From Candidatus Thiodiazotropha sp. (GTDB taxonomy: Bacteria > Pseudomonadota > Gammaproteobacteria > Chromatiales > Chromatiaceae): DNA of 45,081 bases. The notes below the pieces were generated by a model, which saw only the letters and a list, made by a program, of their open reading frames with translations, had not been told where the DNA came from and searched no databases. Shown in pieces: positions 18,605-38,264 of this stretch. Position 1 is the stretch's first letter; every line of letters starts with the position of its first letter. The stretch covers positions 2,898 to 47,978 of the forward strand of contig JARRQD010000011.1 in the NCBI GenBank assembly GCA_037382205.1, read 5' to 3'. The translations under genes were made by a program, and so were the position numbers.

Positions 18605-20220
18605 TCTGATATTTTGGTTATTCCACCATTGCCATCTACTTTAGCCACGTAGAAGCCTCGCGATGCAAACCTCTGATCCGGCGCCATGCTGAGACGAGGA
18701 AAGATCGAAGTATAAGGTAGGTCATCAATCATATGTTCAATCTTTTCAATCACATAGTCTCGATAAAAGTAACCGCGTATATGTTTGATTGCATCACCAA
18801 GTACTTTTAATGAGAAGTAAGCATTGGCCTGAATCGCTTTAGCTTCTCTATTATAGATTCTTTTTGCTCTAAACCAACCTGTAGAGCGAATCAGTAATCT
18901 GTTCAGTTTGTCGGGCATCTCGGAGCTGTGAATGAAAACAATCGAATTTGCTAAGTCCTGGGGAATATTTTGGGTGTTTGTTCCATAATATTGACTGGAA
19001 AGCATGATCATCATTGACTCACCAAGCTGATCACTGATCAGCAAGTCCTCTGTAGCCAGCTTGTCCAACCACAATACAAGAGTGGTATCTTTGCCGGCCA
19101 GATAAGATCTCAAACCCTGTTCACCCATATGATCGACAGAGAGTGTATCGACATTGACACCACGCTGATTGAGTTCATCGACGAGGGCGTCTGAGGCAAC
19201 CGTACTGAGTGTATCAGAATCATCAAATATCTGTAGTACCCGGGCAGATGGACGATTTTTCATAATATAGGAAGCTACCGCCTCGGCTTCATGGGCGGCC
19301 CCCTTATTCAAATAGATGGTATAGTAGTTCCCATCATCGATAGCTGGCTGCTGTGTGGTGGGAAACAGGCACGGTATACTATTTCCTTCACAGAATTCAC
19401 TGACACTTTCCCAACCAGTGGGAACCAAGCCGTTAACCAGTGCAAAAACAGGTTGTTTGGAGTAATAGCTATTCAGCTGCTCCGGCCAGGTCTCCTTATC
19501 CCCAGTTAGTTCCCAGATATGTATCTTCCATTTTCGATAGGTTTTAAACATCCACTCCTTATGCCAAGGCGCGTTTTTTGCCCTTTTTGTTTCATATCGA
19601 GTTTCAACATTCTTTTGCTCGACATAGGTCTCCATAACGTCGATCAGTGCTTTATTCTCCTCCTCACTGTTTGAGGATAAGACAATGGTTGCAAAATGAA
19701 TGGTGGTTTCGGTCACTCCGGGTGACGGTACGTCGGACAGAGTGCTGAGATAAGCCATCAAACCTTCCAGAGCCTCATCGTCAATCTCATATCTGGGCAT
19801 AAAAGGATCCAGCGGCTGCCCATTGGCATCAATGCCATCCCTCACCGCCGCCATAAGACTCTCCTTGGTATAGGCTTCTCGGTAGACAGGAGGTTCAGGT
19901 GGCTTACTGGTGGGAAGTTTCAATGGTTCAAAGAGGATACTACCAGCCACAGCTGGTACCACCTGTTGACCTTCGGTAGAACCCAGTCCACTCCTACGAT
20001 GACAGGTCTCACAGATCAATTGGTCCCCTTCAACAGCGATATCACCCTGAATGCTTGCTTTTACCAGCTCTCCATTTGGCAATATGCCTTTTTTGTAAAG
20101 CAATTTACCTGCTATGAAGGCCTGAGAGTTAATCGTTACTTCATTGTAGGAGGCGGCTGAGAACAACACCAGACAGAAGAATATCGCAAACGTAGTAGCC
20201 CTTTTAAAGGAGGTTTCCAT
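18589..20220 (-). CDS. c-type cytochrome fused to a periplasmic-binding-protein-like domain
   Basis: Signal peptide, CETCH heme motif, 'MPRY' axial Met candidate, then ~380-aa alpha/beta domain ('QPVFAL', 'FCE...IPCLFP'). Confidence 0.75.
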   Translation of the reverse strand: METSFKRATTFAIFFCLVLFSAASYNEVTINSQAFIAGKLLYKKGILPNGELVKASIQGDIAVEGDQLICETCHRRSGLGSTEGQQVVPAVAGSILFEPLKLPTSKPPEPPVYREAYTKESLMAAVRDGIDANGQPLDPFMPRYEIDDEALEGLMAYLSTLSDVPSPGVTETTIHFATIVLSSNSEEENKALIDVMETYVEQKNVETRYETKRAKNAPWHKEWMFKTYRKWKIHIWELTGDKETWPEQLNSYYSKQPVFALVNGLVPTGWESVSEFCEGNSIPCLFPTTQQPAIDDGNYYTIYLNKGAAHEAEAVASYIMKNRPSARVLQIFDDSDTLSTVASDALVDELNQRGVNVDTLSVDHMGEQGLRSYLAGKDTTLVLWLDKLATEDLLISDQLGESMMIMLSSQYYGTNTQNIPQDLANSIVFIHSSEMPDKLNRLLIRSTGWFRAKRIYNREAKAIQANAYFSLKVLGDAIKHIRGYFYRDYVIEKIEHMIDDLPYTSIFPRLSMAPDQRFASRGFYVAKVDGNGGITKISEWMAP

Positions 20221-20789
20221 CAGTTTGCAGCCGATACGACTTTCTTGTACTCCTTGACAATATCTTCTGCACTGGCCAAGCCATCGATGCGCGTCCAGTG
20301 CTTTCCTCCTTGACCTCGTATCAGGGTGATCGGTTCATGATTCATTTTGGATCCACGGAAGATGTCAAATGCCTTCTCCACAGATACTATGTCATTGTAG
20401 CTGCCGGTATAGAAGTTCCATTGGTCACCCGCTTTAAATCTTTTCGAATATTCCATTAACTGCTCTGGAGTGTCGTAGTCCGGATCGATGGTTATCGACA
20501 CCATGGATAGCGAGCCGACCTCATCACCCAATATCTTTTGAACTTGATGAAAGCTGGCAGAGAGAACCGGACAGATGGTTGTACAGGTGGTGAAGATAAA
20601 ATTCAGCATCACAGGTTTGTCACTATCCAGTATATCTGCGAGCTGTAGCGGCTCACCTCTGTGTGAGATCAGTTTGACGTCAGGCAGATGGTAACTGGCG
20701 TGTTTTACTTGATAGGACTTATTTTCCAGCATTGCCCGATGGTGGGCATGTTGATCATGCTTATGTAGAGAATGATCTTGCATATTCAT
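20220..20789 (-). CDS. SCO1/SenC copper chaperone with His-rich N-terminus
   Basis: FIFTTCTTICP (CxxxC), 'SITIDPDYDTP', distal His (NHEP); N-terminus DHSLHKHDQHAHH. Confidence 0.9.
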   Translation of the reverse strand: MNMQDHSLHKHDQHAHHRAMLENKSYQVKHASYHLPDVKLISHRGEPLQLADILDSDKPVMLNFIFTTCTTICPVLSASFHQVQKILGDEVGSLSMVSITIDPDYDTPEQLMEYSKRFKAGDQWNFYTGSYNDIVSVEKAFDIFRGSKMNHEPITLIRGQGGKHWTRIDGLASAEDIVKEYKKVVSAAN

Positions 20790-23700
20790 AGCAACTTTGA
20801 ATCGGTCACCAAGCTTCTGGGAGTTATTTGGCCTAGTGATGCAATCGAGTTTGAATTCCCTTTTATTGTCCGCTCATCAACGGAGTACTTTCTGATTGCT
20901 GGAACTTGGCGGATATACTGCAGTTGCAGATAGCCTAAGAAAAATACCATCAAACCTAACAGAAGCAACAGATCGGCTGATCCACCACCTCCGCCGCCAC
21001 CACCATTGTCAACACTCCCCCCATCCTGGCCATCATCATCTTCTATGGTCAAAGTAAAGCTGCCTGAATCATTATCGATACTGGCAGTAGCGGATGCATT
21101 ACCCAGTACAAAAGTGACTGTTCGGTTTCCATCAACAACCGTATTGTCAATGATCTCCATATTGATCGTCTTCTGAGTTTCATTGTTGGCGAACACCAGA
21201 GTGCCAGTGGTAACATTGAAATCGCTACCAACTACCGCTGTTGAAACACCGACACTCAGATCCACACTGACGCTTCCAGTGAGCACCTCACTGCGGTCTA
21301 TGGTGAAACTCGCATTGACTGAAGATTCATTCACAGTAAGGCTGGTAATGGTAAAGCCAATCACTGCAGACGCACTGAGTGCGTCATCATCAGTGATTGT
21401 TATCTGTCCCTGACTCTGCTCCCCGGCTACCGCGCCACCCTGGAAGTTACTCATTAGCAACAGTATGCTTTCATCTGATTCCACTTCGGAATCATTGAGC
21501 ACTGGCACTGTAAACGTCTGCTCGGTGGCATCGCCATCGGCAAAACTGACCGTGCCGGAGCGATAGGTATAATCCGAAGAGGCTGTCGCAGTGCCATCTG
21601 CGGTATTGTAGTCAACAGATACCGCACCGCTTGAACCACCACTGCGTGAAACGGTTACACTCACCTCTCCACCATCCTCCGCTGCAACAATCGCTGTATT
21701 GGAAAAAATCAGCGAACCTGCCGCTGGCGGTTGATCATCGTCACTCACGGTTATCGTGGCGGTAGCAGTATCACCAACTGACGCACCAACCGCATTGGAG
21801 AGTACCAGATTGATGGTCTCATCCCCTTCAAAAAGTGCGTCATCCATGATTGTCACTTCAAAGGTCTTTGTCACTTCGCCGTCAGCAAATGTCAATATAC
21901 CGCTTGCCACCTGGTAATCGATACCGGCGTTAGCTGTACCATCAGCGGTTGCATAGTTGACCTGTGCAACACCGGTACTACCACCCTGACGCTCCACAGT
22001 AACCTCGATCAAACCATCAGTCTCCGCTGCAACAAAGCCACTGGCACTGAAAACCAGTAGACCCGCTGCGGGTGCCTGATCATCTTCGGCGATGATCAGA
22101 GTGACCTGAGAGGTCTCTCCCAGTACGGCGCCCCCGGTTGGATTGCTCAGAGTCAAAATAACCTGCTCATCCCCTTCGTACCCGTTGTCATCAAGCAGTG
22201 TGACCTGGAATGGCAAAACTCAAACTCCCCGATGCAGCGGTATAGTCCTCTCCAGCCACTGCGGTCAAATCACTGGAGGCATAGCTGACGCCTATGGCGC
22301 CACTGCTGCCACCTGAACGAGAGACTGAGATGGTGGCTGTACCACCATCCTCATTGATCTGATATTCGGAAAGGCTAAACTGAAGACTGCCTGAGGCAGG
22401 AACAGGGTCATCACTGCTCAAAGTTACTACAGCTGAGGCCGGCGTACTCAGTACAGCACCACCACCAGGCGAGGCCAGTGTTATCATAAAGGTCTCGTCA
22501 GTCTCGTAACTGCTATCATCCAATAGTGGTATTGTACAATTGCTGGTGAGCTCACCATCGGCAAAATTTACTGTCGTTTGGGTAGCTGTATAGTCCGATC
22601 CTGCGGTGGCCGTTAGATTACTTGTACGACAAACGATGGAGACGGCGCCACTGCTGCCATTGCTCCGAGTCACCGGAACTTGTATTGTTGCATCACTCTC
22701 AGAAGCGTTATAACTTGAACCACTGAACTGCAATCTGCCCGCATTGGCGATCGGTTCGTCATCAGTAATCGAGACTTCTGCGACATCCCTGACACCCAGG
22801 CTAACCGATTGTGGATTTGACAGGGTGATAAGCAGTGTCTCTGTGCCTTCAGCCGTTGCATCATCTGTGATGTCCAGAGTGACACTACTGCTGATCTGGC
22901 CATCGATAAATGATAAGCTGCCAGAAGCCGCTGTGTAATCGCTGCCATCGATTGCGGTCACATCACTCATTGCATAGTTCACAGAACCGCTACCTGAACT
23001 ACCACCATCACGCTGCACGGTGATGGTAACGCTGCCATCAGCCTCACTGAAGCTATAGCTACTGCTACTGAACTGGACTTGTCCGACGGCCGCTGCATCA
23101 TTATCAGTAATGGTGATCGTCGCACTGTTTTGCGCGCCAATATTCAGACCACTGAGATTAACCGTAAAATTTTCGCTCTCCTCGAAGACGTTATCATCCA
23201 GAATATCAATGGTAATATGTTGACTACTTTCACCATCAGCAAAGTTAAGTGTTCCCGAGACTGCTGTGTAGTCTTGACCAGCACTGGCCGTGCCGGTTTC
23301 ACTATCGCTCGAGTAATCAACAGAGAGGGCGCCACTGGTGCCACCGGTGCGCTCCACTGTGAGCAGAAGTGTTGAAGCACTTTCGCCCACACTGTAGGAA
23401 GCGCTACTGAACTGCAACTTCTGCCCGGGAAACGCGCCTGACTGGGCACCGAGAGTAAAGTCATCTGAGAAGAAGATATTGACCTCATCGCCACCCTCAT
23501 CCACCGCCGCCACCTGCACAGTAGTAAAACCTGCATCGTCGATGAAGCCAAGAAATGTCCATTCAGATACTGTGGCATCAGAGCCAGTAAAGTCCACCGC
23601 AGCTGAACCATTGGCGGTAAAACCAATTTTTGCCCCGGTACTGCTACGAAACCAACCGCCCACCCCATAAAGCGTTGTACCGCTTGCAGACAGTGTATAT

Positions 23701-24062
23701 TTATCCGGTACCAAGTGGGTGTTTCTGTTGTCCACTGGAAACATCAGATAGCTGCCTTCGTGAACATCGCCACCACTGGTGGAGGTGCGAACAAATGAGG
23801 ATTCCGTTGAACTGCCTGACCAGGTAATCCCTTGAGAAGTGACACTCTGAACACCGCTACTCCGGGTTCCTTCCCAATCACTGCCCTCAAAGCTCTCTTT
23901 TGTAAGATCCGTGGAGATGGAAGGCAGGTTCGAGAGATCCTGTATAAACTGGGCTTCAGCTGTTGCATCGCAGCAATAAACGCTCACCACTGCATGAGAT
24001 TCAAGTGAGTAGATCAGTCCAAATATTGTTAGCAAACCAAGCAGATGATTTCTGTATTGCAT
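20786..24062 (-). pseudogene. Exported 7xCalx-beta protein with C-terminal GlyGly-CTERM-like anchor, frameshifted at ~22211 (ORFs 22191-24062 and 20786-22216)
   Basis: Upstream ORF ends SGSLSFA|IPGHTA*; downstream frame resumes FQVTLLDD within the same Calx-beta repeat; poly-Gly + hydrophobic helix near the C-terminus. Confidence 0.8.
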
Positions 24063-24084: not shown

Positions 24085-24681
24085 TCAGTTGACTGTTAAA
24101 TTTTCAGCTTTGAAGTCGCCTATCACCATAGTAACCTTTTCTCCTGATTTTACATGGGCATCAGGATTGCCGAATACCATATAGTAAGTTTTGTTGGGCT
24201 TGATATTTTTGCCCCGATTGGTTGCCCTGAAGGCGCCCACGTTGGCAGCCATTGGTATAGGTAGTTTAGCATTAGATTTCTCAACCTTAAGGTACGGTTT
24301 GATACGCTGATCAAAAAATATCTTGGCTTTCTCTAAATCAAGCACCTTAAATCTAAAATCGATCATATAACCAGCGGCGGTAAGATGAAGACTGAGCAGC
24401 TCAATCCCCCATTTATCAGCGATTTTTTTGACTGTTACATGATCCGTCGGCGGTTTTGCAACAGACGGCTTGACAATGGGCGGTTGCCAAGTTTTTTCTT
24501 TTGACACTTGCGCTATGGTTTTCACGTCAGCCTTCTCCTTAGCATTTGCGATTGATGCAGTAAAGGCAATAAAGCCCATACTACAAATCACCAGGACAAG
24601 AATCACCAGCAGTGGATTGCCACCTGGATGTCTCTCCCGCTCATCCTCAAACCTGTTTTTGGAAACGTCTGAACTTCTCAT
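24085..24681 (-). CDS. Conserved hypothetical membrane-anchored/exported protein of the oxidase operon
   Basis: N-terminal TM, then a basic beta-rich domain 'WGIELLSLHLTAAGYMIDFRFKV...YYMVFGNP...VIGD'; RBS-like TAGGT. Confidence 0.7.
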   Translation of the reverse strand: MRSSDVSKNRFEDERERHPGGNPLLVILVLVICSMGFIAFTASIANAKEKADVKTIAQVSKEKTWQPPIVKPSVAKPPTDHVTVKKIADKWGIELLSLHLTAAGYMIDFRFKVLDLEKAKIFFDQRIKPYLKVEKSNAKLPIPMAANVGAFRATNRGKNIKPNKTYYMVFGNPDAHVKSGEKVTMVIGDFKAENLTVN

Positions 24682-24756: not shown

Positions 24757-27700
24757 TTATGGCTCTATAGCGATCGGAACATTCAAGTAGACAGCCTCAG
24801 GATAGGTTGCCAGATCTACGACCTCTAGCTCCAGATAGTCGTTGGCATCCGGTGCTTCTACTTCGGGCCGGTTGTTGCCAACACCGTTGACATTGATACT
24901 CCATACACGTTGCCCGCCTGCATTCCTGATACGACCATTATTGTTGTTGGTCGCTGTGGGAACGATTTCGACCCGCGGTGAAGCCACACCGTTGGCATCG
25001 ACACGCACCAGGAAGGCTCGTACCCCCTGCGCACCACCGGAAGTGGGGATTGCAGAATCTACAATACCTCTGAGGCGCCATCTATCATTGCCAGTGCCTG
25101 CTGTATTCCGTTCCAGGTACGAGACACGAGTAATAGTGATCTGACGAGCATAGTCAGCCTGAGCTGTATTACTCAGACCACCGTTTAGATCACTGACTTC
25201 AAACTCGACACTGCCTAGCACACCGACACTGTTGTTATCGATCAAGATGGGTGTGATAGCACCATCAACCGAGATCGCAGGATCGAGTGTATCCGGATCA
25301 TTTACCTCTGAGGCGATGAACGCTGTATCACCATCCACATCGGTAACGTTACCAAGCACGCCTGGCGGTGCAATGCTAAAGGTAACGCTCTGCGGCTGTC
25401 CCTGTGGCCCGAGTACAGTAGCCGCCGCATCCTGCAGATAGAACAGCTCATTGACCGCTACTGGATTATCATTCACAGGATTCACAGTAATCTCTGCTGT
25501 CACTGTGTTACTACTGATGGTTACCAGAGCGCCGCCATCATCGTAGCTCTCTTCCAGGTGATAGACGATGGTATCGGCACCTCTCGCACCCCCTGCATCA
25601 TTGAGCGTACAGGCATCCCCATCGTCCACTGGAGGATTGTCACTATTCCAATCCAGCAGAGGTTCGTAGTGGAAGGATCCGATCGCGCCATCATAGCTAA
25701 AGCTACCGGCAGCCGTATTGATACAGCTTGGCACGCTGTCCACAACCACGGCCAGTGTGCCGCCATGTATACCCGCTTCGCCATTCAACAGGCCGTTGGC
25801 GGCAACCACATCCAAAACAGCATCTTCGTCAGTCGTGTAGGTTTTTCCTCCAACTGCAATCAGACCGGATGCGGCAGCAGGATCGATGGTAACTGTAGCG
25901 ACGGGTGGGTCAGCGAGACAGACATCATCCCCGGGAGCACTGGTCAGACAGTAGGTAAAGCTTGCTCCTGTAAATGACGCAGGTGGGCTATAGGTAATCG
26001 TGCCGTCGTCATTCACCGTTGCTGTACCGGCAGTCGCGGGGGATGCAAGCGCCAAACCATAGACGAGCGGCAGATTGAAGTCGTTGGCATCAATATCGGC
26101 TGTACCAACTTGATCCAGTGTCAATGTATCGTCGATCAGGGTCGGGCCGGGCAGTACTAATGCGACTTCTGCGGTTTGTAGCTCCACCACATTCAGACCA
26201 TCTGTGATGGTAAATTCGAGCGCAACAATCTGTGGTGTTGGATCAGCCGTAAAATCGATCGTGCAGCTTCCTGCCGTATCGTTGCAAGCTAATGGATAAG
26301 ATGCCCCAGCTAGGGATACGGAACCATCAAATACCGTTACTGTATCCCCGGGGGTAACATCCGTTGCACCAGCCACAAGGTCTGCCAGGTTGAATGTAGC
26401 TACACCAGACACCAGATCTTCCGTGGAAATCACAACTTGAGGCGTGATTGGCAATTCTGGGGCTGCATTGAGCTCGACAGTAATATCGATATTACCTGAA
26501 ACTGGGGTGCTGTTTGCAGCAGTGACGATATCGTATTGGTATTGGGTTGTCTCACCTCCCGACACAGTTGGTGGCAAGCCTGAATCAACGGTTAAGTCAC
26601 AAGTTGAACCCGCTGCTTGGCAATCTAATGTCAAAGTCAGGCCAGGAATCGTCAACACATCAATTAGTGATGTATTGGGAGTAGCAAGTTGGATTGCATC
26701 ATTATCCGCATCCACATCATTGGCCAACACATCAATGGTTTCTGTTACCTGGTAACCCGTATCACTACCCACAACCTCTGGGATCTGGATCGTGATTGAA
26801 TCAGCATTCGCAACCGGTGGTTGGTTGGCGCCAACATTGAAACCGAGAAAACGTATCATACCGCCGATTTCGTCACCCTGATTGAAATCTTCAGGATCAC
26901 TCGGATTGGTCATGTTGCCATTACCATCATAGACCGCATACTGACCACTGTGGGTTGGCTGAATGATGACATCTTTGGTTTTTAATGGAGGCAGGCCAAC
27001 TGAGTACTGCTGAACAGGCGCAGCATGGATACCAGTATCATCCTCATAAGTATATGGGATGCCGTCCTCGGCATGGATTGTACCGTAGAGCCCCTGTAAA
27101 ACCGGTACATGTTTCTCGGTAGCTGCGCTTACAAAGCGTAACAGTGTCGGACCAGCTGTGGTCAATGGATTTAAACCATCTTCATCAGTGACGATTGCCG
27201 GATAGCCTGCCTGGTAGGGTTGTCCATTGATCAAATACCAATTGGGATGACGATGGATAGCAGACTCCAGTGTGCCGGCAACGACTTCCGCATTAAATGC
27301 TGTATCGATATCATGGTAGAAGAGGATGACTTCATTGTCGTAGCTAACCTCATCACCGGTGAGATCAGTTCTGACATCATAAAGCAGATTGCCTGCATCC
27401 AAGTCTTTGGTAGCGACACCATACAGCCCCATATAGAGCTGTTTCTGAGGAATAGTGCCTGTATGGTAGATAAAAGTACCACTGTTATCGATGGGATTCC
27501 CGTTTGCTGCCGTCCAGTTATACTGTTGAGTGCCGCCAGCCGGCGCCTCTAGACCGTATGAACGCATCTTCAGGCTGAGATCGCTGCCACGACTGCTGCG
27601 GGCAACACCGTCATTCCAGGTTGGCCCCATCTGTCCGGCGGAACTGGGCAGTGGTTGACCGGGAATGACTATCGATGTCTCTTCCGGCAACATATTGGTC

Positions 27701-28008
27701 AGAAAGATATTCAGGTCGGTGTCTGTTGGATCGATACTAATCCTTGGTCCTGGCGCACTCGCGACCGGACCAGTACAGTCTGCACCGGCCACATCGGGTG
27801 ATCCACTGTTGTAACAGGCGCCATTAGGATCCAGTGCATAACCCCACATGGTGGGATCCTCCGCAGCCGGGACACCTGGCAGATCCAGTGTGAATTCTTT
27901 CGCAATGAGATAGACATCCAATGCATTCGCCTGTCCAGCGGCAACAGCCAGAGCACAGGCGACTACGATCGGTTTCAGTGTTCGCTTCATGGTATTAGAC
28001 CTTTTCAT
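24757..28008 (-). CDS. Cupredoxin subunit C: two Cu-ligand-less multicopper-oxidase-like domains followed by cadherin/Ig-like (Big_9-type) repeats
   Basis: Start 28008 with RBS GGGAGG; signal ending GQANA; 'MWGY', 'PGPRI', 'GTFIYHTG...YMGLYG', 'LING.PY', 'GGMI'; then 'NQPPVANAD', 'DVLANDVDAD', 'VNPVNDNPVAVN'. Confidence 0.75.
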   Translation of the reverse strand: MKRSNTMKRTLKPIVVACALAVAAGQANALDVYLIAKEFTLDLPGVPAAEDPTMWGYALDPNGACYNSGSPDVAGADCTGPVASAPGPRISIDPTDTDLNIFLTNMLPEETSIVIPGQPLPSSAGQMGPTWNDGVARSSRGSDLSLKMRSYGLEAPAGGTQQYNWTAANGNPIDNSGTFIYHTGTIPQKQLYMGLYGVATKDLDAGNLLYDVRTDLTGDEVSYDNEVILFYHDIDTAFNAEVVAGTLESAIHRHPNWYLINGQPYQAGYPAIVTDEDGLNPLTTAGPTLLRFVSAATEKHVPVLQGLYGTIHAEDGIPYTYEDDTGIHAAPVQQYSVGLPPLKTKDVIIQPTHSGQYAVYDGNGNMTNPSDPEDFNQGDEIGGMIRFLGFNVGANQPPVANADSITIQIPEVVGSDTGYQVTETIDVLANDVDADNDAIQLATPNTSLIDVLTIPGLTLTLDCQAAGSTCDLTVDSGLPPTVSGGETTQYQYDIVTAANSTPVSGNIDITVELNAAPELPITPQVVISTEDLVSGVATFNLADLVAGATDVTPGDTVTVFDGSVSLAGASYPLACNDTAGSCTIDFTADPTPQIVALEFTITDGLNVVELQTAEVALVLPGPTLIDDTLTLDQVGTADIDANDFNLPLVYGLALASPATAGTATVNDDGTITYSPPASFTGASFTYCLTSAPGDDVCLADPPVATVTIDPAAASGLIAVGGKTYTTDEDAVLDVVAANGLLNGEAGIHGGTLAVVVDSVPSCINTAAGSFSYDGAIGSFHYEPLLDWNSDNPPVDDGDACTLNDAGGARGADTIVYHLEESYDDGGALVTISSNTVTAEITVNPVNDNPVAVNELFYLQDAAATVLGPQGQPQSVTFSIAPPGVLGNVTDVDGDTAFIASEVNDPDTLDPAISVDGAITPILIDNNSVGVLGSVEFEVSDLNGGLSNTAQADYARQITITRVSYLERNTAGTGNDRWRLRGIVDSAIPTSGGAQGVRAFLVRVDANGVASPRVEIVPTATNNNNGRIRNAGGQRVWSINVNGVGNNRPEVEAPDANDYLELEVVDLATYPEAVYLNVPIAIEP

Positions 28009-28024
28009 GATTGTGCCCTCCCGA

Positions 28025-29470
28025 TTAATAGATAGGTGTACTAGGAGGCAGCACAACGACAGAACCCAGGCTTCCGCCGGGAAAGATATCAAAGGTAGTC
28101 AGCTCTTTTTCAGCATGGGAGTGCCATACCAGGAAATAGCCGCCGAAGGGATTTAAGCCACCTTCACCAGGAGGCAGGTCTCCGGTGTCACCCAGGAAAG
28201 GACTGCCACTCCACCAGCCACCTAGAGTCAGGTCACCGACACCCGGCAGTGAAACTGGGATTGGCTTGCCGTGGTCATTACACCATTCACCAGGGTAGTC
28301 AGATCCTGCATCGGCGTATCCATCACGGGGACTGACGTCGATACAGTTGTGGCCAGTATCGTGGCCATAGATATCCCAACCCAGGTCTTTACCTGTCCAG
28401 GACCATAGGGCATCAACCGTCTGCTTAGGTGCAGAGTTGATGGTATTATCGGAGCGACCCAAGTTGGAGACCAAACCGTCAGAGCTGAGCATCTTACCGT
28501 CACGACCGATGAAGCGAAGGTTTTCGCCATGGTAGTGCATGGGGTGTGGATCCTGGCCGGCATTGACACTGCGCACCAACACATGGTCACCTGGATGCGC
28601 CATCACAAGGGACTCATAAGGTTGGTTTGGGAATAGCGTGTTGTAGTCCCCTTGAAAAAGATCGGGAAAGACCCTTCCATTGATAAACCAAACCTTGGCA
28701 TAGCGGTCGGTATTGGTGAAGTGGTTAACATGCCCCTTCTCCATCTGGATATGGATATCCGGATCGATCTCAGTCATCAGATAGAGGTTTTCCTGATCGT
28801 ATTCGGTTGCTGTGCCTGCACCATAGGCGGTCCGATTGTTGACCGGGTCAAAATCCGCCGGCCTGACGATCATCGCACCCACCAGCCCCATCTCTGTATG
28901 CAGACCAGGGTTGGCGCCTGCCAGACTGTGGTAGACATAAGTGCCAGGTGACCCCGCAGTAAAGCGATAACTCACGGCCTGACCCACAGCGGCTTCATTG
29001 GTGAAGCGGCCTGGCGTACAGTTTGTCGCGCCCGTTGTTGGCGTGGCGCCGCCGGGATCAGGAATATCGATGCATTGAGAAGTGATCTGATGGCCAGTCA
29101 CCTCAACTGAAATATTATCCGGCACACCGTAGTTGACCAGGTTAATGGTTACATCTTCACCCTCTGTTACGATCAGGGTTGGTGCGGGATATTGCGGCAG
29201 TTGGTAGTTGTTACCCTCGTCGTGTGAGGTGCTCGTCTCCTCCCCCAGATCCAGATCACCGAAGCCCCACATGTAGAGACTGGTGCCTTCCGGCAGATTC
29301 ATATTGAATGGGTAGGCATAGAGGTTGAACACACCATTGGCACCTTGCGAGATACCACGGATATCGTGTGCCGCCTGAGACTGCTGTACAGTCAGTGCAC
29401 TGCTGGCGCCCAAAAATAGGAGGCCCATAAGCCGTCCAGGTTGTTTGAGTAGTTGTTTCATTAATCTCAT
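28025..29470 (-). CDS. Multicopper-oxidase subunit B (domain-2 HxH motifs, no type-1 Cys); likely start 29461
   Basis: Signal peptide; 'PAPTLIVTEG', GTYVYHS, 'INGR.FPD', HPMHYHG, WHSH. Confidence 0.85.
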   Translation of the reverse strand: MRLMKQLLKQPGRLMGLLFLGASSALTVQQSQAAHDIRGISQGANGVFNLYAYPFNMNLPEGTSLYMWGFGDLDLGEETSTSHDEGNNYQLPQYPAPTLIVTEGEDVTINLVNYGVPDNISVEVTGHQITSQCIDIPDPGGATPTTGATNCTPGRFTNEAAVGQAVSYRFTAGSPGTYVYHSLAGANPGLHTEMGLVGAMIVRPADFDPVNNRTAYGAGTATEYDQENLYLMTEIDPDIHIQMEKGHVNHFTNTDRYAKVWFINGRVFPDLFQGDYNTLFPNQPYESLVMAHPGDHVLVRSVNAGQDPHPMHYHGENLRFIGRDGKMLSSDGLVSNLGRSDNTINSAPKQTVDALWSWTGKDLGWDIYGHDTGHNCIDVSPRDGYADAGSDYPGEWCNDHGKPIPVSLPGVGDLTLGGWWSGSPFLGDTGDLPPGEGGLNPFGGYFLVWHSHAEKELTTFDIFPGGSLGSVVVLPPSTPIY

Positions 29471-29488
29471 CTCCTAGTTCGGCCGGGC

Positions 29489-30847
29489 TCAGTTGATGAC
29501 AATCTCAGTGATCATGCCACCATCCATCTGGGTTGCATTACTCATTTGATGCACTTCGGTGGCATGCAAGAAGTAGGTACCAGGGGCAACATCGGTGGTA
29601 TCGATGATGACGTCCAGCGTCTCACCTCCGCCAAAGTTGTGCGATGCGGCCTCTTTATAGATGTTCTTGCCATCGACACCCCGCATATGTCGTGCACCGG
29701 TTCCCACAACCTTCATCGTCAACCCCATTGCTGTGATGGTCCAGAATCGATCCAGACCGACATTGGAGAGACGCAGCAGCAGGCGCCGTTCACCACTGTT
29801 ACGATCCAGTTCGATGCTGGAACCGATCAGCTGTGTAACCGCACCATCGGTCAAGAGTTCTCCAACATTGCCGGTTACCTTACCGCCAGCCAAGCCATCA
29901 GGGTCCGCTACTGGATCTGTGGCATCAACAGGCGCGGGTAATGCGCCAGGATTGACCGTATCGGGATAACCTCTGCCGTTGAATTGCGGATAGTTGCCAC
30001 TCAGCAGTGCAAATGGCAAGGGTTGTACAAACAGGCTGGCATCATGGAAAACTTGATCAAAACTCGCTAACTGGATCGCTTTTTCCTTATCGAAAGCGGT
30101 AGAGCCATCGCCATCGTTGTAGACGTAACCACCTTCTCCACCGGTTGCACGAGGCGCAATACCACAAGCGGTTAGATTCGGCGTTTTGACAGGATCGTAG
30201 ATATTCGGCGTAGATGGATCGTCTGCACCCAGCGTGTAACAACCCAACTCATCCTGTATCGGATGAACATAGAGATTGGCCAGCATGCCCATCTCCATAT
30301 GCTCGGTGGCTTCCACATGGCAGTGGTAGAGATAGGTGCCAGGCTCGACAATGTTGTAGTAGTAGGTCAGGGTCGATCCCATGTTAATAGCGATGGAAAC
30401 CTCGGGAACCCCATCAAATACCGCCGAGGCATTAGGAAAACCGTGAAAGTGGACGGTATGGGGATCGAACAGGTCAGGTCGAACCACCGTTCCCACATTG
30501 GTCAGATTGAGGTAAAACTGATCACCTTCATCTAACTCGATGGTTGGCCCTGGCCACTCGCCACTAAGGATACCTTCTGCAATAACCTGATCAGGCGGTA
30601 TGCCGGTCTTATCACCAAAGCCGAAACTGTAAAGTGGATTACCATCGGACATCGTCGTAAAGCTGTCGCCAGCGATCAGATGCATACACTTGGTATCGGC
30701 AGGCTCGACTTCCCCTCCGGTCCAAGTTGCGTCCCCATTGTTATCGCCAGGGCACTGGACATTGACAACGGCGTTGGCCTGGCCGGAAACCGCCAAGAGT
30801 GCCAGGCTAATTGCACCTGCGAGGGTGTGCTTATTTAGTAGTTTCAT
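29489..30847 (-). CDS. Multicopper-oxidase subunit A (type-1 Cu site and HxH motifs in domain 1)
   Basis: Start 30847 after RBS GAGGAG (ORF track begins at 30958); signal ending GQANA; HTVHFHG and YHCHVEATEHMEMGM; domain 2 lacks HxH pairs. Confidence 0.9.
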   Translation of the reverse strand: MKLLNKHTLAGAISLALLAVSGQANAVVNVQCPGDNNGDATWTGGEVEPADTKCMHLIAGDSFTTMSDGNPLYSFGFGDKTGIPPDQVIAEGILSGEWPGPTIELDEGDQFYLNLTNVGTVVRPDLFDPHTVHFHGFPNASAVFDGVPEVSIAINMGSTLTYYYNIVEPGTYLYHCHVEATEHMEMGMLANLYVHPIQDELGCYTLGADDPSTPNIYDPVKTPNLTACGIAPRATGGEGGYVYNDGDGSTAFDKEKAIQLASFDQVFHDASLFVQPLPFALLSGNYPQFNGRGYPDTVNPGALPAPVDATDPVADPDGLAGGKVTGNVGELLTDGAVTQLIGSSIELDRNSGERRLLLRLSNVGLDRFWTITAMGLTMKVVGTGARHMRGVDGKNIYKEAASHNFGGGETLDVIIDTTDVAPGTYFLHATEVHQMSNATQMDGGMITEIVIN

Positions 30848-30960: not shown

Positions 30961-33900
30961 TTACAACCTCTCATCAGCACCGGCGTCGGTTCTGGCGCCT
31001 TGCGGTCTTGCGTCACCATCGATGTCAGTTGCGTAGATACCGTTAGCATTCCCAGCAGCCGAATCAACAGCTGGGTTTGTCCCGGCTGCGAGGTGATAAT
31101 CGATATTGCCATCCGCAGTTGCGGCATTGCCGTCGATATCGAGTAGAGAGAGCGGACCGAAGTTGACCTGCAGGAAGTTACCGCCTTCATCGAATGCACC
31201 TGCCACTTGCAGTACTTTGAACTCAGGGAAGAGCAGTGCATCACGATCCTCATTAAAACGACCGTTAACAAACAGAGGACCAAGCATATTTTGCTCGTCG
31301 TTGTTTGCTGTGCTATAGCCTTGGATATAAGTATTGTTGAAGGCTGAGGCACCGGTCTGTAAGACGTTACGCAGTGGGCGCAGCAGCATGTCACCAAACT
31401 GTGGATGAACCGGATTGATGGTGTGTCCGTTTAGCACCGCCAGATCCTGGGTGTAGTCTTCCACGTTTACGTTCGCAATATCGCAGTTGCTATTGCTGGT
31501 GTTATCACAAGTGGCAGGCACCAGACCACTCTCAATCAAGATGGTGTCTGCATCATCTGTATTCCGCCAGTAGAAGGAACGGTTGTGGTAGATGATATTG
31601 TCAAACAATTGGATCGGATCAGAGAATGTTATCCGCTCATCACTACGATTGTTAACATTGTCCTCATCTAACCGCGAGCCAGGGAACTCTTCTACATAGC
31701 GTTCTGTAAGAGCTCTCATGGTTGCACTGTGATAACGTGCAACAACACCGGCTGGTTTTGCGATCGATTGATTGGGATCTACGCCAAACGCCTGCGAACC
31801 GGTTGCCGTTGAATCGTTGTTTGCGATGGTGTTGTAACGAATGTAGGTCTTGACACTATCCGCCAGCGAGATTGCACCGGCAAGTCCTGAGACATTGTTC
31901 GTCAGGATATTGTTGGAGACGATCACTCGATACCAACGTCCGAAGCGCTCTGGATCCTGGGCGATATCCTCACCATTGACACTCAGCATTGCGATACCGC
32001 CACCATCACCGGCACCAGCCAGATTACCCCGGATCTGATTGCCGTCGATGTTGACGTTCCCAGCACCTGGAGAGAGGGTTAGACCCGTCTCTTGATCGAC
32101 ACGCAACCCAGCCAGGCCGCCGACAAAAATACCGGCACCGGCAGGTTTACTGCCAGGAGTCTGACTGAAGCTCTCATTAAAGATAATGGTGTTATCGAGG
32201 ATACGACCACCACGGGAGAGCCCCAAATGCCCGATACCCCCACCATCGCCTGTTGAGAAGTTACCGCAAATCAGATTGCTGCGAACACGATAGTTATTAG
32301 CGCCTGTGTGTATGGAGATACCACCGCCGGCACCATTCAGTCCACCATTCTTAAGGATCTCATTGTGATGGATGTTCATATTGTCGGCAAAGGCATCATC
32401 GTAGGCCACGAAGCCATTTTCAGCCTGATCTCTCAACCAGCGGTTATAACTACGCCTGAAGAAATCATCATCCTCCCCAGTAACTTCATGAGACAGAGTG
32501 GTGTGACCGATTCGGATGCCACCCCCATAGAAACCGGAGTTTGATGTGATGCGGTTATTCGATATGTTCAGCCACTGGATATAGCCATTGGCCACGATAC
32601 CTCCACCTGTACTTGCACCAATAATGGTGAACCCATCGATACGCGCAAAGCGGTTTCTGTTATTACGACGGAATCGGTTCTGACCGGACCACTTACCAGC
32701 CACCAAGATGCCGGCACCCTCCTCTGTCGGGAAGATCGGTGCGCCAAGCGCTCCTTCTACCCCGCCTAAGAAAGGTACGGCAACTAATTGACCAGGCAGC
32801 TGATCAATCAAACCTTCACCGACCAGTCTGGAAGCCAGTTGACGCCAGGCAATAACCTTTTCTGTCGGAGTTTGTCTGGCATTGATGGTCACCGCACCGG
32901 CGCCAAAGCCTTGCAACTTGACCGGCTTCCACATGATCACCATCTCATTGTAGATACCGGGCTTAACGATGATCAGATCACCGGCGCGAACACCCGTTAG
33001 ATTGTTCTCCAGGCTGCCTATGGCATCCTGAATTGTCGGGTACTGAGTACTAGGAACATTGACGACATTGTATTGGTTGTTAGGATTATTCTGATTTGCG
33101 TCACCACGAACACCAACGCCTTCAGCGATACCCACTGTCAGGGTGACACCCATCGGTGAGACACTGCCATTGCCGTGTTCAACCAGCAGTTGATAGTCGC
33201 CTGCCGCCAAGCCGGCGGTTGAAGCGACAATGGTGTTGTCACTCCAAGTCGTAACACCCAAGGCAAGACGCGCTCCGTTAACACCGAGTTCGTTGCCGTC
33301 GCGATCTTGTACAAAGACAGTGCCAACCGTAGTACCAAATCCATAATCACGATCGATCATCTGCTCGGCAAGTGGATCGCCTTCAGCCCATTCCGGGTTG
33401 CGTACAGCAGTAAGACCTTTGGCATTGATGATGATGTTCTCACCCGTGTCAACGATAACAAAAGGACCTTCAACACCACCAACAGGCACCGTCTCACGCA
33501 GCACAGAAGAGATCGCAGGCGTCTGTGTCGGTGCTTCACAATCGAGTGCAAATTGATCTGGCCCGGCAAATGCCGCAACGGGTACCACCGGGGTGTCCAG
33601 ATAGGTGACGGTTCCGGGCATATATTGGAAGGTGTAACAGAACTGACTGTACTGAGAATCAAAGTTTGGATCGATAATGAACTCAGGGTTGCCTGCAGCA
33701 TCAACACCATCACCCACCGTGCCACTGAACTCTGGGTTCGCTATCGGGCCCGCATCATTCATACAGGAGACCAGCATGTTAGGCGACATACCCGAAGGCA
33801 TCGGCAAGTTCGCTGTGGTGGTGGAAGCCACCATCAGGTTGTAGCGACCATACTCGTCCGCATAGACCCGATTAATCTCATTACCGTTCCAATCATAGAA

Positions 33901-36900
33901 GGCGACCGGCACATTGGTCGGAGCGAACTTCTCACCGAATTGGGGTGAGTTCGGATTGAACTCATTGGCCAGATCGTTGAGGATCATCCCGGAGATGTTG
34001 CCCGCTTTAGGCACATCGGTCATCAGGAAGAACTCAGCCGCCGCATTCTGACCGGCGGAGAGTGGCACATGCTTGAGATCACAGAGTGGTCTTAATTCGC
34101 CAGCAAAAGGCGCTGTGCCATCTTCCATACCGGGAATAACCTGGTCAGCTGCACCACTGCCATCCCTGGTCGCTATTGCCAGATAGGGAGGTACTGCAAC
34201 CCTCTCGCCGACGCAGCTGGCAGGAAACGCCTGTAGTGAGGGGATGTAGTCATCGCCATAGTCGACATTCTTATGGTGCTCCCGGACCAGTTTGTATCCG
34301 GCTGGTGTCGCCGATTCAACAATATAGTCACCGGGGAGTAACCAGGCCTCAGGAAGATTCAATTCCGGGAAACCTGTAAACAAATCATTATAGAAATCTG
34401 CCAACTTAGTAGCCACAGTCGCCGCATTGTAGCCAGTGGCCGCCTGAATCGATGCCAAGTGAGCCAGATCGTAGTCTTCAAAAGCGAAGCCACCATCAAA
34501 CACCGCCGGACGAATCTGATTAAAACTTCTCAAACCATCAAAACAACGCTGGTCATCAATTGCCGGACTAACCACGGAGCCGGGTGGATTGTTGGTTCCC
34601 TGACAACCAGTAGGTAGACTGTCATCCCAGCTGTCGGTGTGTGTAACCTGCAGCGCATCGCCTAGATCAAATTGACCATTTCCATTGTAATCCACATCCT
34701 CAGGGCCAGGAAAGTTACCCAACGGATGATTATCGACGTCAGCGCGCTGAATGCCGGGCTCACCGTTGATATCCTCGATCTCGCCATCATCAGGGTCCTG
34801 CTGACCATTACCGTTCCAGTCCAGGTCGCAAGGATCACTTGGGAAATTCGTTAAAGGAGGACAGTTGATATCACCATCCGCATAGAGGGCCAACTGGACC
34901 CGTGGCACACCGGGCTCCCACTCCTCCGCTACTGCGAATTGCGGATCTTCTTCAGCTCGAGTGGTGGCATAATAGACAATACCGGAGATACCTCCGTTCT
35001 CACCTACGTATTGAGAGACTCTTGGAGGAAAGGATGTGAAATCGAAAGGTGTATCGATGGTATAATCGACTTTACCAAACTGCATCACACTGGTCTGCCC
35101 AAGAAAACCTTGAACACCCTGAGTTAAAACCGCCCCCGTTTCTGTACGCGAAAGGTTATTGTTGGTATTCGGATTGATCATCTGGCGAGCATTCTCAACA
35201 ACCCAGTTGACGCCATCATCAGAACCCAGGCAGTCACCGATTACGCCACGGTTATCCGTCGCGGAGATTACGATATCGCTGTAACCGGTACCGCGGGCCT
35301 CACATTGACCCTGTGGATTGAGTTCATCAAATGTGGGATCGTCCCAGCCTCCATCTGCTCGTACTTCACCGCCGGCATCCACTACAAAAGTGGCGCCTGT
35401 GGCCTTCTTATTGGCAAAGCTGACTTCTGCCACCAACCAGTGAAAGAAGGGAAAGAATTCATCGAATGGCGCCAGGCCTTCCCCATCTGTCGGAAAGTTC
35501 TGATAGATGGTGCCATCACGCCAGCGCAGACTGACATCCTGACTCTCAGGACCAATGCCGTTCTCATCATCTGCGGTATCGGCAATACCATCTTCACCGA
35601 GCGGTTCCCAAAAACCGTTTTGGTTTTTATCGTTAAAGATGCCAGTGTTGAGACGTGAAAACCAGTTGAAAACAGGCACCTCACCAAAACTACAGGAAGC
35701 CACTGCGCCACCATTACAGGATCCGCCAACGGGATCCACAGTAAACATCATCGAGCCAAACACCACATCCAGATTGGAATCCCAAATCGCCAATTGATAT
35801 TGGCCTGGTGGAACAAGATCAATAGAGAAGTCACTATCGGGACCACATGCATCTGCATACACGGCTCGTCCCAGGGCGCCACCTTCACCAACTTGGTTAA
35901 TGGCTACCCAACAAGCGGGGAAAGGACGGCCGCTGAAAAAAGTGGTCGCCGGACTACGCGACATATGCATGTCATTAACCATGCCACTGACAGTTGCCAC
36001 CTGCTCTCCCTGCTGGGCAGCCGGCATATCGTTAAAGGGCTGTACAAAACCCACGAAAACGTGAGGTCCGGGAATGCCAAATTCTACAAATACAGCTGGT
36101 TCGTTTGCCTTTACCCAGGCATCGATGACTTTAGTACCCTCAATGGTGCTAGTCTGCTGCCAAGCTTGATTTGGCGGTGGGATAATAACAATACCATACT
36201 TGGCAGGGGCAAGATTTTTAACGGACAGAAACCCGTCAGCGTCTGGATGGAGCGTACCATCACCCAGCTCAGTAACAATAGGATTACCCTCTGCATCGAG
36301 GCATGTAGCAATAATCTGGCCGCCAGGATCTGGTGCATCACCAGTGGTACCAGTAGGAGTACTTGTTGCACAGGTCTGATCGTAATTGGTGCCAAGTGGA
36401 TTGCCGAAGGCATCCTGAATCACCTGTCCACCGGCTATGCCATAACGCCCCGCCGGCTCTTCGAGAAACAAACTAAATTCTGTCCAGTCAACACTGCCAT
36501 CATTCTGCTCTTCAGGAAGATCAGGAACGCCATTAATAGGATGCTTATCTTCAAATAGATAAATTGAGATTTGAGCGGTAGGAATCGGTTGCTGCTGCAC
36601 TGTCACAGTGACCTGTCCGGCTGTTGTGGTTCGAAGGTCAACTGGAGCACCGCTAATGCTATACCCACTGTAAGGATAAACAGATAGATAATAACGGCCG
36701 GCACCGATGAGATCTGCAACATCAGCTTGATCCGTATCACTATTCCCAGTCAATGAGCTGCCATCAGTTGCCACACCCACATCGTGGTTACTGGGATGAA
36801 AGCCGAGTGAGAGTAACTCATCAGCCGTTGTTCCAGGGTTTGCAGGATCAACAGGGAAGGTATTATCCCGCTCAAGCATCCAGCGGAAACCATTGACTGG

Positions 36901-37029
36901 GCTACCTGACTGATCAACCACATTGATTGTCAATGAGGCTGCGTTCAGTGTGGTAACCAAAAATAAGAGACACAGAAAAACAAATATCTGTAGTCCTCTG
37001 TTCATGTAACCCTGATCTTCATTTATCAT
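30961..37029 (-). CDS. Giant (~2,020 aa) exported acidic protein: SdrD-B/prealbumin-like domains, DxDxDG Ca loops, IPT-like domain, right-handed beta-helix, choice-of-anchor-Q-like C-terminus
   Basis: RBS GGAG before ATG 37029; signal peptide; DKNQNG, DWNGNG, DYNGNG; 'VPSTQYPTIQDAI...IVKPGIYNE' beta-helix cap, GGGI repeats, 'DYHL...AVDSA...DIDGDARPQG..DAGADE'. Confidence 0.75.
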   Translation of the reverse strand: MINEDQGYMNRGLQIFVFLCLLFLVTTLNAASLTINVVDQSGSPVNGFRWMLERDNTFPVDPANPGTTADELLSLGFHPSNHDVGVATDGSSLTGNSDTDQADVADLIGAGRYYLSVYPYSGYSISGAPVDLRTTTAGQVTVTVQQQPIPTAQISIYLFEDKHPINGVPDLPEEQNDGSVDWTEFSLFLEEPAGRYGIAGGQVIQDAFGNPLGTNYDQTCATSTPTGTTGDAPDPGGQIIATCLDAEGNPIVTELGDGTLHPDADGFLSVKNLAPAKYGIVIIPPPNQAWQQTSTIEGTKVIDAWVKANEPAVFVEFGIPGPHVFVGFVQPFNDMPAAQQGEQVATVSGMVNDMHMSRSPATTFFSGRPFPACWVAINQVGEGGALGRAVYADACGPDSDFSIDLVPPGQYQLAIWDSNLDVVFGSMMFTVDPVGGSCNGGAVASCSFGEVPVFNWFSRLNTGIFNDKNQNGFWEPLGEDGIADTADDENGIGPESQDVSLRWRDGTIYQNFPTDGEGLAPFDEFFPFFHWLVAEVSFANKKATGATFVVDAGGEVRADGGWDDPTFDELNPQGQCEARGTGYSDIVISATDNRGVIGDCLGSDDGVNWVVENARQMINPNTNNNLSRTETGAVLTQGVQGFLGQTSVMQFGKVDYTIDTPFDFTSFPPRVSQYVGENGGISGIVYYATTRAEEDPQFAVAEEWEPGVPRVQLALYADGDINCPPLTNFPSDPCDLDWNGNGQQDPDDGEIEDINGEPGIQRADVDNHPLGNFPGPEDVDYNGNGQFDLGDALQVTHTDSWDDSLPTGCQGTNNPPGSVVSPAIDDQRCFDGLRSFNQIRPAVFDGGFAFEDYDLAHLASIQAATGYNAATVATKLADFYNDLFTGFPELNLPEAWLLPGDYIVESATPAGYKLVREHHKNVDYGDDYIPSLQAFPASCVGERVAVPPYLAIATRDGSGAADQVIPGMEDGTAPFAGELRPLCDLKHVPLSAGQNAAAEFFLMTDVPKAGNISGMILNDLANEFNPNSPQFGEKFAPTNVPVAFYDWNGNEINRVYADEYGRYNLMVASTTTANLPMPSGMSPNMLVSCMNDAGPIANPEFSGTVGDGVDAAGNPEFIIDPNFDSQYSQFCYTFQYMPGTVTYLDTPVVPVAAFAGPDQFALDCEAPTQTPAISSVLRETVPVGGVEGPFVIVDTGENIIINAKGLTAVRNPEWAEGDPLAEQMIDRDYGFGTTVGTVFVQDRDGNELGVNGARLALGVTTWSDNTIVASTAGLAAGDYQLLVEHGNGSVSPMGVTLTVGIAEGVGVRGDANQNNPNNQYNVVNVPSTQYPTIQDAIGSLENNLTGVRAGDLIIVKPGIYNEMVIMWKPVKLQGFGAGAVTINARQTPTEKVIAWRQLASRLVGEGLIDQLPGQLVAVPFLGGVEGALGAPIFPTEEGAGILVAGKWSGQNRFRRNNRNRFARIDGFTIIGASTGGGIVANGYIQWLNISNNRITSNSGFYGGGIRIGHTTLSHEVTGEDDDFFRRSYNRWLRDQAENGFVAYDDAFADNMNIHHNEILKNGGLNGAGGGISIHTGANNYRVRSNLICGNFSTGDGGGIGHLGLSRGGRILDNTIIFNESFSQTPGSKPAGAGIFVGGLAGLRVDQETGLTLSPGAGNVNIDGNQIRGNLAGAGDGGGIAMLSVNGEDIAQDPERFGRWYRVIVSNNILTNNVSGLAGAISLADSVKTYIRYNTIANNDSTATGSQAFGVDPNQSIAKPAGVVARYHSATMRALTERYVEEFPGSRLDEDNVNNRSDERITFSDPIQLFDNIIYHNRSFYWRNTDDADTILIESGLVPATCDNTSNSNCDIANVNVEDYTQDLAVLNGHTINPVHPQFGDMLLRPLRNVLQTGASAFNNTYIQGYSTANNDEQNMLGPLFVNGRFNEDRDALLFPEFKVLQVAGAFDEGGNFLQVNFGPLSLLDIDGNAATADGNIDYHLAAGTNPAVDSAAGNANGIYATDIDGDARPQGARTDAGADERL

Positions 37030-37188
37030 GGATTTTTCTCCAGACCCCTTACGGTCATTCAACTTTCCCGGGGCTCATCTGACCAAGTCATATGATCCTT
37101 CAGCCCCATTACCAGTACTTAGGCCAAAGTCTATCTGTCTATATAAGGGTTGGCTTTGCGTGAAACTACGCTATTTCTCTATGCAAGC

Positions 37189-37592: not shown

Positions 37593-38255
37593 ATGAACAG
37601 CGACAAGAAAAGAATCATCATCGCAGAAGATCATAATATTCTGCGTGCCGGTTTAAAGGCTCTCTTGATATCCAATCTCCAGTTCGAAGTGGTTGGTGAA
37701 GCAGATAATGGCCGTGATGCAATACGTCGCGTCATTGAGCTGAAACCTGACCTGGTGATTATGGATCTGAACATGCCCGGCATGAATGGCATGGATGCGA
37801 TACGGGAGATAAAAGAGCGGGATGCTGAGATCAAAACCCTGGTGCTGACGGTGCACAACGAGGAGGAGTATGTATTGGCAAGCCTTAAAGCAGGCGCCAA
37901 CGGTTATGTGCTCAAAGATGCCACCCAGAATGAGTTAATGACAGCGGCTGAGCGTGTATTGAGTGGTAAGACCTACTTGAGCGCGGAGATAACGGAAAAA
38001 GTTGTCAACAGCTATCTGCAAACCAACAATGTCAACAATGAACCCCTCACCCGCTGGGACACAGTTACTCAGAGAGAACGTCAAATTTTAAAGTTGATTG
38101 CTGAAGGACACACCAACAAAAGTATGGCTGACTATCTATGTATCAGTGTAAAAACCGTTGAGAAACACCGCGCCAATCTGATGAAAAAACTTGATCTGCA
38201 CAACGTTTCAGCACTGACCACTTATGCGCTGGAGAAGGGTTTAATCAATCGCTGA
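37593..38255 (+). CDS. NarL/FixJ-family response regulator (REC + LuxR HTH)
   Basis: 'IAEDH', 'DLVIMDLNMP', 'GYVLK', 'TQRERQILKLIAEG', 'SVKTVEKHRANLMKKL'. Confidence 0.95.
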   Translation: MNSDKKRIIIAEDHNILRAGLKALLISNLQFEVVGEADNGRDAIRRVIELKPDLVIMDLNMPGMNGMDAIREIKERDAEIKTLVLTVHNEEEYVLASLKAGANGYVLKDATQNELMTAAERVLSGKTYLSAEITEKVVNSYLQTNNVNNEPLTRWDTVTQRERQILKLIAEGHTNKSMADYLCISVKTVEKHRANLMKKLDLHNVSALTTYALEKGLINR

Positions 38256-38264
38256 TCTAGGAAT

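Follow-up and report, generated by a model that had tools for sequence, protein, structure and literature searches.

Can three adjacent genes, none of which encodes a complete set of copper ligands, together specify one multicopper oxidase (MCO)? The question is raised by a 45,081-nucleotide stretch of DNA from Candidatus Thiodiazotropha sp. (positions 2,898 to 47,978 of contig JARRQD010000011.1, assembly GCA_037382205.1; hereafter the window), in which tandem genes on the minus strand encode three paralogous proteins, here termed A (29489..30847), B (28025..29470) and C (24757..28008), each with two cupredoxin domains. An initial annotation of this DNA had proposed that the three chains assemble as a heterotrimer. 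The data described here make such an assembly likely: A, B and C are predicted to form a 1:1:1 ring with one type-1 copper, in A, and one trinuclear O2-reducing site between domain 1 of A and domain 2 of B, probably exported with a large protein, D, encoded ahead of them and most likely engaged in the oxidation of metal ions or minerals.

Copper ligands of A, B and C

The open reading frame (ORF) of A comprises 489 amino acids (aa) and reaches position 30958, with a likely ATG start at 30847. By the numbering of this ORF, domain 1 of A holds both a full type-1 site (H167, C213, H220 and M225) and four cluster histidines (H170, H172, H212 and H214). The motif HTVHFHG (30440..30460) supplies H167, H170 and H172, an HCH...H...M motif (30284..30325, with HCH at 30317-30325) supplies the remainder, and the translated domain 2 contains no HxH. 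The 481-aa B has the other half: its domain 2 carries cluster histidines H312 and H314 in HPMHYHG (28526..28546; H309 of this motif is variable in distant relatives) and H450 and H452 in WHSH (28115..28126), with Ser451 where the type-1 Cys would be, and no HxH is present in the translated domain 1. All four motifs translate from the minus strand exactly as initially described, confirming the assignment of a full type-1 site plus half a cluster to domain 1 of A and of the other half, with Ser for Cys, to domain 2 of B. The ORF of C (1,111 aa) reaches 28092 and has a likely start at 28008, with a cupredoxin part occupying approximately the first 390 aa and a variable Ig/cadherin stalk. Its translation contains neither the type-1 set nor the cluster histidine set. 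The earlier view of C, as keeping the fold but having no HxH, was therefore right as to cupredoxin homology and absence of the ligand sets but not in the detail, as one HxH is present (HRH, 27247-27255), off the ligand position and poorly conserved (His in 17 and 38 of 73 rows). One type-1 site and eight cluster histidines, the set of the MCO superfamily, are reached only by A and B combined. Since no single chain holds the eight histidines, a homotrimer, whichever chain it was built from, would lack ligands for the cluster. A and B are also the sole Cu-oxidase_3 matches in this genome (94.7% complete), so the genome offers neither half another oxidase as partner.

Two cupredoxin domains per chain are likewise found in the type-C two-domain MCOs, including the Nitrosomonas europaea blue copper oxidase (3g5w), a metagenomic laccase (2zwn), 3gdc and Nmar_1354 (9cck). 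These are homotrimers with the type-1 site in domain 1 and the cluster where domain 1 of a chain meets domain 2 of its neighbour (PMC13151041). Every chain of a type-C enzyme thus holds both histidine sets and the trimer has three sites, whereas no chain encoded in the window holds both. Pfam identifies Cu-oxidase domains in A and B, and in C only cadherin and Ig domains. The best Protein Data Bank (PDB) match of A is 3g5w (E 1e-13), B is likewise nearest to type-C two-domain oxidases such as 3g5w, and a profile of C matches two-domain laccases and nitrite reductases (best E 1e-10). Cupredoxin homology of C is also apparent in the model of a C homologue, which matches 3g5w and 2zwn. Relatedness of the chains to one another is seen in a score of 115 bits for B against the hidden Markov model of C and in a probability of 99.8 for the profile-profile alignment of A with B. 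Copper nitrite reductases have a mononuclear three-His type-2 site; A and B instead keep four plus four histidines, and their assignment as nitrite reductases was rejected at 31.4 (A) and 27.8 (B) bits against a TIGR02376 cut-off of 296.3 (NCBIfam).

Conservation of the ligand split was assessed in 170 loci, 80 of them picked with A (the best 80 of 103) and 90 with B (the best 80 of 590 metagenome matches, eight genome stretches and two chromid records). The counts leave out rows in which the position in question was not covered (16 of 162 for domain 1 of A, 5 of 168 for domain 2 of B and 25 of 150 for domain 2 of C). The A-picked loci are biased by one search pattern lying within the type-1 motif; the B-picked loci taken alone gave the same ligand result as the A-picked set, and pooled counts are given here. 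The type-1 set of A is intact in 146 of 146 covered rows (Met as ligand in 145, Leu in one), as are its four domain-1 cluster histidines and all three histidines of HTVHFHG, and domain 2 of A has at most one His in 155 of 155. In B the four domain-2 histidines are present in 162 of 163 rows and the type-1 Cys is absent from 167 of 167; in C the Cys is absent from 142 of 142, with at most one His in domain 2 of 125 of 125. A type-1 site in domain 1 is thus confined to A, B and C being without the Cys in all covered rows, and no row of A, B or C has the four cluster histidines split over both domains of the chain. Among individual protein matches, which are partly the same sequences as those of the loci, the type-1 set is found in 248 of 250 A-type and the four histidines in 127 of 129 covered B-type proteins. 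The best 150 matches of a mixed A+B profile to 1.84 billion representatives included none of A or B type in which both halves were combined. The complementarity first noted in the window is therefore nearly invariant in the 170 loci and the split is retained across several phyla, a pattern far beyond chance. A more distant protein, P0341, consists of a ligand-complete type-C unit fused to a second unit without domain-1 ligands and a C-terminal cupredoxin (a four-domain MCO); its sequence suggests what the ancestor may have looked like, and it is possibly an intermediate-like relative.

Other residues of A and B are also conserved. Beside the type-1 site of A, E219 is invariant and E216 near-invariant, and an invariant RPDLxD loop lies ahead of H167. 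A also has an invariant D182, at what we take to be the position of the second-sphere Asp of the cluster. A pair of paralogous non-ligand histidines is invariant in A (H305, 98/98) and B (H240, 120/120) and absent from C. Residual histidines (B H181, C H210 and A H465) were considered as a second metal site and rejected, being seen in close relatives and not conserved in distant ones.

Co-occurrence, fusions and homologous clusters

Over the 170 loci A was present in 161, B in 167, C in 146, D in 126 and a small protein, E, in 102. A occurred without B in three loci and B without A in nine, every case at a contig end, and in the order to which the window belongs the same 38 of 151 genomes hold A and B, adjacent in 37. 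The anticipated co-occurrence of A and B thus holds. B occurred without C in 21 loci, of which 18 were contig ends and two were filled by an extension of B itself, leaving one, L134, considered below. Named records with the system come from Gamma- and Betaproteobacteria, Verrucomicrobiota, Lentisphaerota, Kiritimatiellia and Acidobacteriota, and protein matches extend this range to Bacillota, Chloroflexota and Actinomycetota. The operon is present in 22 of 25 genomes of this genus, the named relatives nearest to the window being Ca. Thiodiazotropha at 84% identity, and is found only sporadically beyond it, in 2 of 400 Pseudomonadota sampled and in 1 of 200 from the phylum that includes genome G551. 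In a quick tree of 25 of the 74 complete loci, A, B and C formed one clade each (SH-aLRT 100, 97 and 95) with similar deep splits; separate clades with mirrored deep splits indicate that the triplication was old and single. Two genomes of the same genus (G420 and G452; loci L114 and L115) have a divergent operon copy away from the secretin gene, suggesting replacement by transfer. In a further clade (L187, 5613-8971; L196; L186; L192), with close protein matches to named Bacillota including Moorella, A, B and C apparently have no signal peptides. MnxG and CotA are located at the spore surface, and by analogy a similar site might be guessed for this clade.

Gene fusions involve A, B, C and D. 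D is a putative scaffold or adhesin (30961..37062, minus strand) encoded by a 2,033-aa ORF with a likely ATG start at 37005 (approximately 2,000 aa) and a signal-like N-terminus. In Verrucomicrobiota and relatives D and A form a single protein, and in Cupriavidus and Paraburkholderia D is joined to C. Seven natural proteins combine B with C through linkers of 160-470 residues, and in one locus, L196, domain 2 of A is joined to domain 1 of B through approximately 11 residues. No second clean A-B fusion was found among the best 120 matches of a search with L196, and fusions among the matches listed were pairwise only, with none of A-B-C. P0153, P0304, P0307, P0312, P0321, P0364 and an ORF of L070 were rejected as A-B or B-C fusions since they look like frameshift read-throughs or fragments. 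Taken together the D-A, C-D, B-C and A-B fusions would tie all four proteins to one assembly. The stalk of C is missing in many relatives (C is approximately 330 aa in L072, L073, L178 and L187) while the two cupredoxin domains remain; the cupredoxin core is thus the part of C that is kept, and the tethering role initially given to C is not borne out. In two proteins, P0121 and P0122, B is fused behind a PAP2/vanadium-haloperoxidase-like domain (Pfam PF01569, PF22778), a hint of halide oxidation in some lineages.

D has no Pfam or NCBIfam match. A model of its C-terminal half consists of an Ig-like domain and a right-handed beta-helix (pLDDT 85, pTM 0.92) with weak matches to polysaccharide lyase, epimerase and tailspike beta-helices, and its conserved residues, mostly Gly, Asn, Asp and Pro, appear structural. 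D was rejected as a redox or copper protein, having no conserved His/Cys cluster and no haem motif. E (24085..24681, minus strand) is a conserved 198-aa protein with an N-terminal hydrophobic segment, without Pfam or NCBIfam matches and matched only by unnamed Atlas clusters. The initial annotation recognized A, B and C but overlooked D and E as constant partners, together with a published homologous cluster in Sideroxydans.

In S. lithotrophicus ES-1, He et al. (2017) described genes for three extracellular MCOs in tandem, accompanied by a mofC-like gene and a copper chaperone, and stated that these MCOs lack homology to MofA/OmpB (PMC5566968). Keffer et al. (2025) found Slit_1812-1818 to be higher in late magnetite than in late Fe(II)-citrate cultures, with log2 differences of 3.5-7.7 on fresh magnetite in the six genes considered, named similar clusters in Paraburkholderia, Ralstonia and Anaeromyxobacter, and left their role open (PMC12016527). 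Comparison of published peptides by eye, of sizes, and of gene order via locus L121 equates Slit_1818 with A, Slit_1817 with B, Slit_1816 (2,873 aa) with a C-D fusion, Slit_1815 with E and Slit_1812 with a cytochrome/periplasmic-binding-protein (PBP) fusion. On these sequence comparisons the window operon is a cluster of the Slit_1812-1818 type, with homologues of A, B, C, D, E, the copper chaperone SCO and the cytochrome together, although C and D are fused in Sideroxydans and separate in the window, where D comes first. Slit_1817 and Slit_1818 were described as having 'canonical' MCO motifs, and the available portions of that paper mention neither a ligand split nor a shared site (PMC12016527). 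The MofA (Leptothrix) and OmpB (Geobacter) clusters likewise combine an extracellular MCO with a MofC-like cytochrome/PBP and SCO (PMC5566968), but MofA and OmpB each consist of one large chain.

Searches of open-access papers found no account of a two-domain MCO that is split or heteromeric. Such a split is not described in the available portions of PMC11761707, PMC7036934, PMC13488337 and PMC13741234; the operon in PMC13488337 is a different, four-gene one, and the Nmar_1354 'heterotrimer' consists of copies of one gene's product that differ in the presence of an additional domain (PMC11761707). Six-domain MCOs (MnxG type, ceruloplasmin) have six cupredoxin domains and one trinuclear site, as predicted for A+B+C, and the bacterial forms, with one type-1 copper and one cluster (PMC3600357), equal the predicted copper count. 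However, their domains lie on a single chain with type-1 copper in the even-numbered ones (PMC3600357), whereas in the window the domains are divided among three chains and the type-1 ligands lie in the first domain of one type-C unit, A. A+B+C would therefore be a parallel solution to the six-domain design and not an ancestor of ceruloplasmin, and the initial suggestion of an evolutionary intermediate leading to six-domain oxidases is not supported.

Proposed arrangement of the subunits, mechanism and alternatives

Subunit order was modelled from a natural B-C fusion, P0145, folded with a checked 25-row alignment and without A. The model has a mean pLDDT of 73 and a pTM of 0.65, with values near 90 in the C half and below 50 in the second half of B domain 2. 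In Foldseek searches one unit matches 3g5w at 2.9 Å (TM by query 0.28). Some entries of ceruloplasmin, factor V and factor VIII gave TM values of 0.41-0.46 over approximately 1,100-1,200 columns, and other entries of the same proteins 0.25-0.28 over approximately 940-1,020 columns; one long alignment, to 8fdg, gave 0.28, and chains of 611-670 residues, which we take to be two adjacent units, gave 0.23-0.25. For this model a single unit alone has a TM ceiling of approximately 0.38, and approximately 1,200 columns fits units 1 and 3. These values are consistent with C domain 2 packing on B domain 1 in the model, the register being read from scores and not from aligned ranges. Such packing would leave B domain 2 facing A domain 1, and suggests a predicted ring order of B→A→C.

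In the predicted complex, substrate would reduce the type-1 copper of A (H167, C213, H220 and M225), electrons would pass through C213-H212/H214 to the cluster held by H170/H172/H212/H214 of A and H312/H314/H450/H452 of B, and O2 would be reduced to water at this A/B cluster, the electron path and O2 reduction being taken from established MCO chemistry. Each complex would hold four coppers. C would close the ring with two metal-free interfaces, SCO would load copper, type II secretion would export the complex and D would bind it to a surface.

Several points weigh against this interpretation. The ring order comes from a distant homologue lacking A, with a pTM of 0.65 and half of B domain 2 below a pLDDT of 50, and resemblance to solved structures may have shaped the model. 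The linker of approximately 11 residues between A and B in L196 would favour the other ring order by analogy with ceruloplasmin. In L134, B is followed by an Ig-like gene and a C core was not seen. The 170 loci are not independent, many being Ca. Thiodiazotropha or close kin. The operon also occurs in lineages that we take to be anaerobic heterotrophs, and so wide a host range speaks against iron oxidation as its general role. No MtrB/PioB match over cut-off was found in this genome. In the Sideroxydans proteome on late fresh magnetite, Slit_1818 (A) lies at percentile 29.5, compared with 74.8 for B and 79.3 for C-D, and its summed iBAQ is approximately 1.4e7 against 1.7e8 on our reading of unlabelled columns (PMC12016527, supplement). 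A thus appears approximately tenfold scarcer than B, C-D and E, a misfit to 1:1:1 stoichiometry unless detection was biased.

This scarcity, together with the short-linker A-B fusion, the C-D fusions of Cupriavidus and Paraburkholderia and the unseen C core in L134, would suit an arrangement in which A and B make up the active site and C is not a constant component, the oxidase being either an A-B dimer or a variable A/B/C mixture (for example B- and C-rich rings with scarce A) and C mainly linking to D. We regard this as unlikely, because the two-domain core of C survives loss of the stalk, C is present in 146 of 170 loci with nearly all B-without-C cases explained by contig ends or by B's own extension, B-C fusions exist and the model shows ring-type contact between C and B, and three paralogues suit a three-membered ring. 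Less probable still, and by some way, is that in vivo the complex does not reduce O2 but serves in copper-based electron transfer or anaerobic redox chemistry, for instance by relaying electrons from a mineral to the cytochrome or by converting a nitrogen oxide. A cytochrome/PBP gene is linked in 45 of 170 loci, members occur in Moorella and Desulfocucumaceae, presumably anaerobes, the Sideroxydans proteins are induced on magnetite, and extracellular dumping of electrons on O2 would on general grounds conserve no energy; however, all eight cluster histidines are kept, which is the MCO set and not the three-His nitrite-reductase site, the NCBIfam nitrite reductase scores of 31 and 28 bits fall far below the cut-off of 296, and most loci, although many are short, showed no cytochrome. 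That each of the three paralogues is decaying on its own or acts separately (A, for instance, as an electron carrier and B as a copper-binding protein) is very improbable: exactly complementary halves are kept across phyla, A and B have identical presence over 151 genomes, the subtrees mirror one another and fusions occur. The complementary split kept across phyla makes it likely that A, B and C work only as one mixed ring.

The substrate of this predicted ring is less certain than its architecture. Mn(II), Fe(II) or a mineral is the leading guess, at somewhat less than even odds, because of the shared MofC/SCO module, the magnetite data and the conserved acidic residues beside the type-1 site; oxygen scavenging or some other role is only slightly less probable, and organic polymers or phenolics would come third. 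A bolder proposal, which we consider possible but doubtful, is that of a widespread surface machine, a heterotrimeric one-site oxidase on a giant beta-helix scaffold with its own type II export, oxidizing solid or dissolved Fe(II)/Mn(II) and representing an independent type-C route to six domains with one cluster, by triplication without fusion.

Gene neighbourhood and significance

The minus-strand genes run in the order D, A, B, C, E, Calx-beta protein, SCO, cytochrome c/PBP and histidine kinase. The N-termini of A, B and C are all signal-like and hydrophobic by hydropathy scan, which is not a predictor. The Calx-beta repeat surface protein (20786..24062) has a Gly-rich motif and a hydrophobic tail, and is in two frames with a break near 22210. 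SCO1/SenC (20220..20789) retains its CxxxC, with the N-terminal part apparently broken off near 20860. The intact locus L003 has the Calx-beta gene as one 1,082-aa ORF, and by comparison the window copy is frameshifted within 22170-22260 and the N-terminus of SCO is missing. Contigs of a sequencing run, X1, possibly the source of the window itself, are identical to it over 26372-28101 and 30269-31000, but no listed long contig piece spans either break, which may be assembly error or real decay. No RNA data set was listed as covering this stretch, a result without bearing on its expression. The MofC-like monoheme cytochrome c/PBP fusion (18589..20220) contains CxxCH and resembles the Slit_1812 peptides. 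SCO is linked in 48 of the 170 loci, many of which are short.

A histidine kinase gene (17150-18604) is last in the run, and a second such gene on the minus strand lies upstream of D beside a plus-strand NarL-type response regulator (37593..39107). A type II secretion gene cluster (801..10844, minus strand; GspC-M by Pfam) is the likely exporter; between it and the operon a subtilase with Calx-beta repeats (11490-14396) is a second likely secreted substrate. In 15 of 21 chosen operon-bearing genomes no more than 30 kb separates B from the secretin of the type II cluster, and a second, more distant secretin is also present in this genome.

Two-domain MCOs have been described as homotrimers, and an obligate heteromer with one shared site would, if confirmed, give the class a novel architecture and provide a clear-cut example of subfunctionalization after gene triplication. 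Each of the three genes is annotated as a multicopper oxidase, yet none is expected to work alone, and tests of the magnetite-induced Sideroxydans proteins would need co-expression of at least A and B, and probably C. An A-B-(C-D)-E-cytochrome-SCO cluster is present on the chromid of Cupriavidus metallidurans CH34 (L120, NC_007974.2, approximately 1.33-1.35 Mb). Occurrence of the operon in this culturable organism and in Paraburkholderia makes the system testable now, with CH34 a tractable host.

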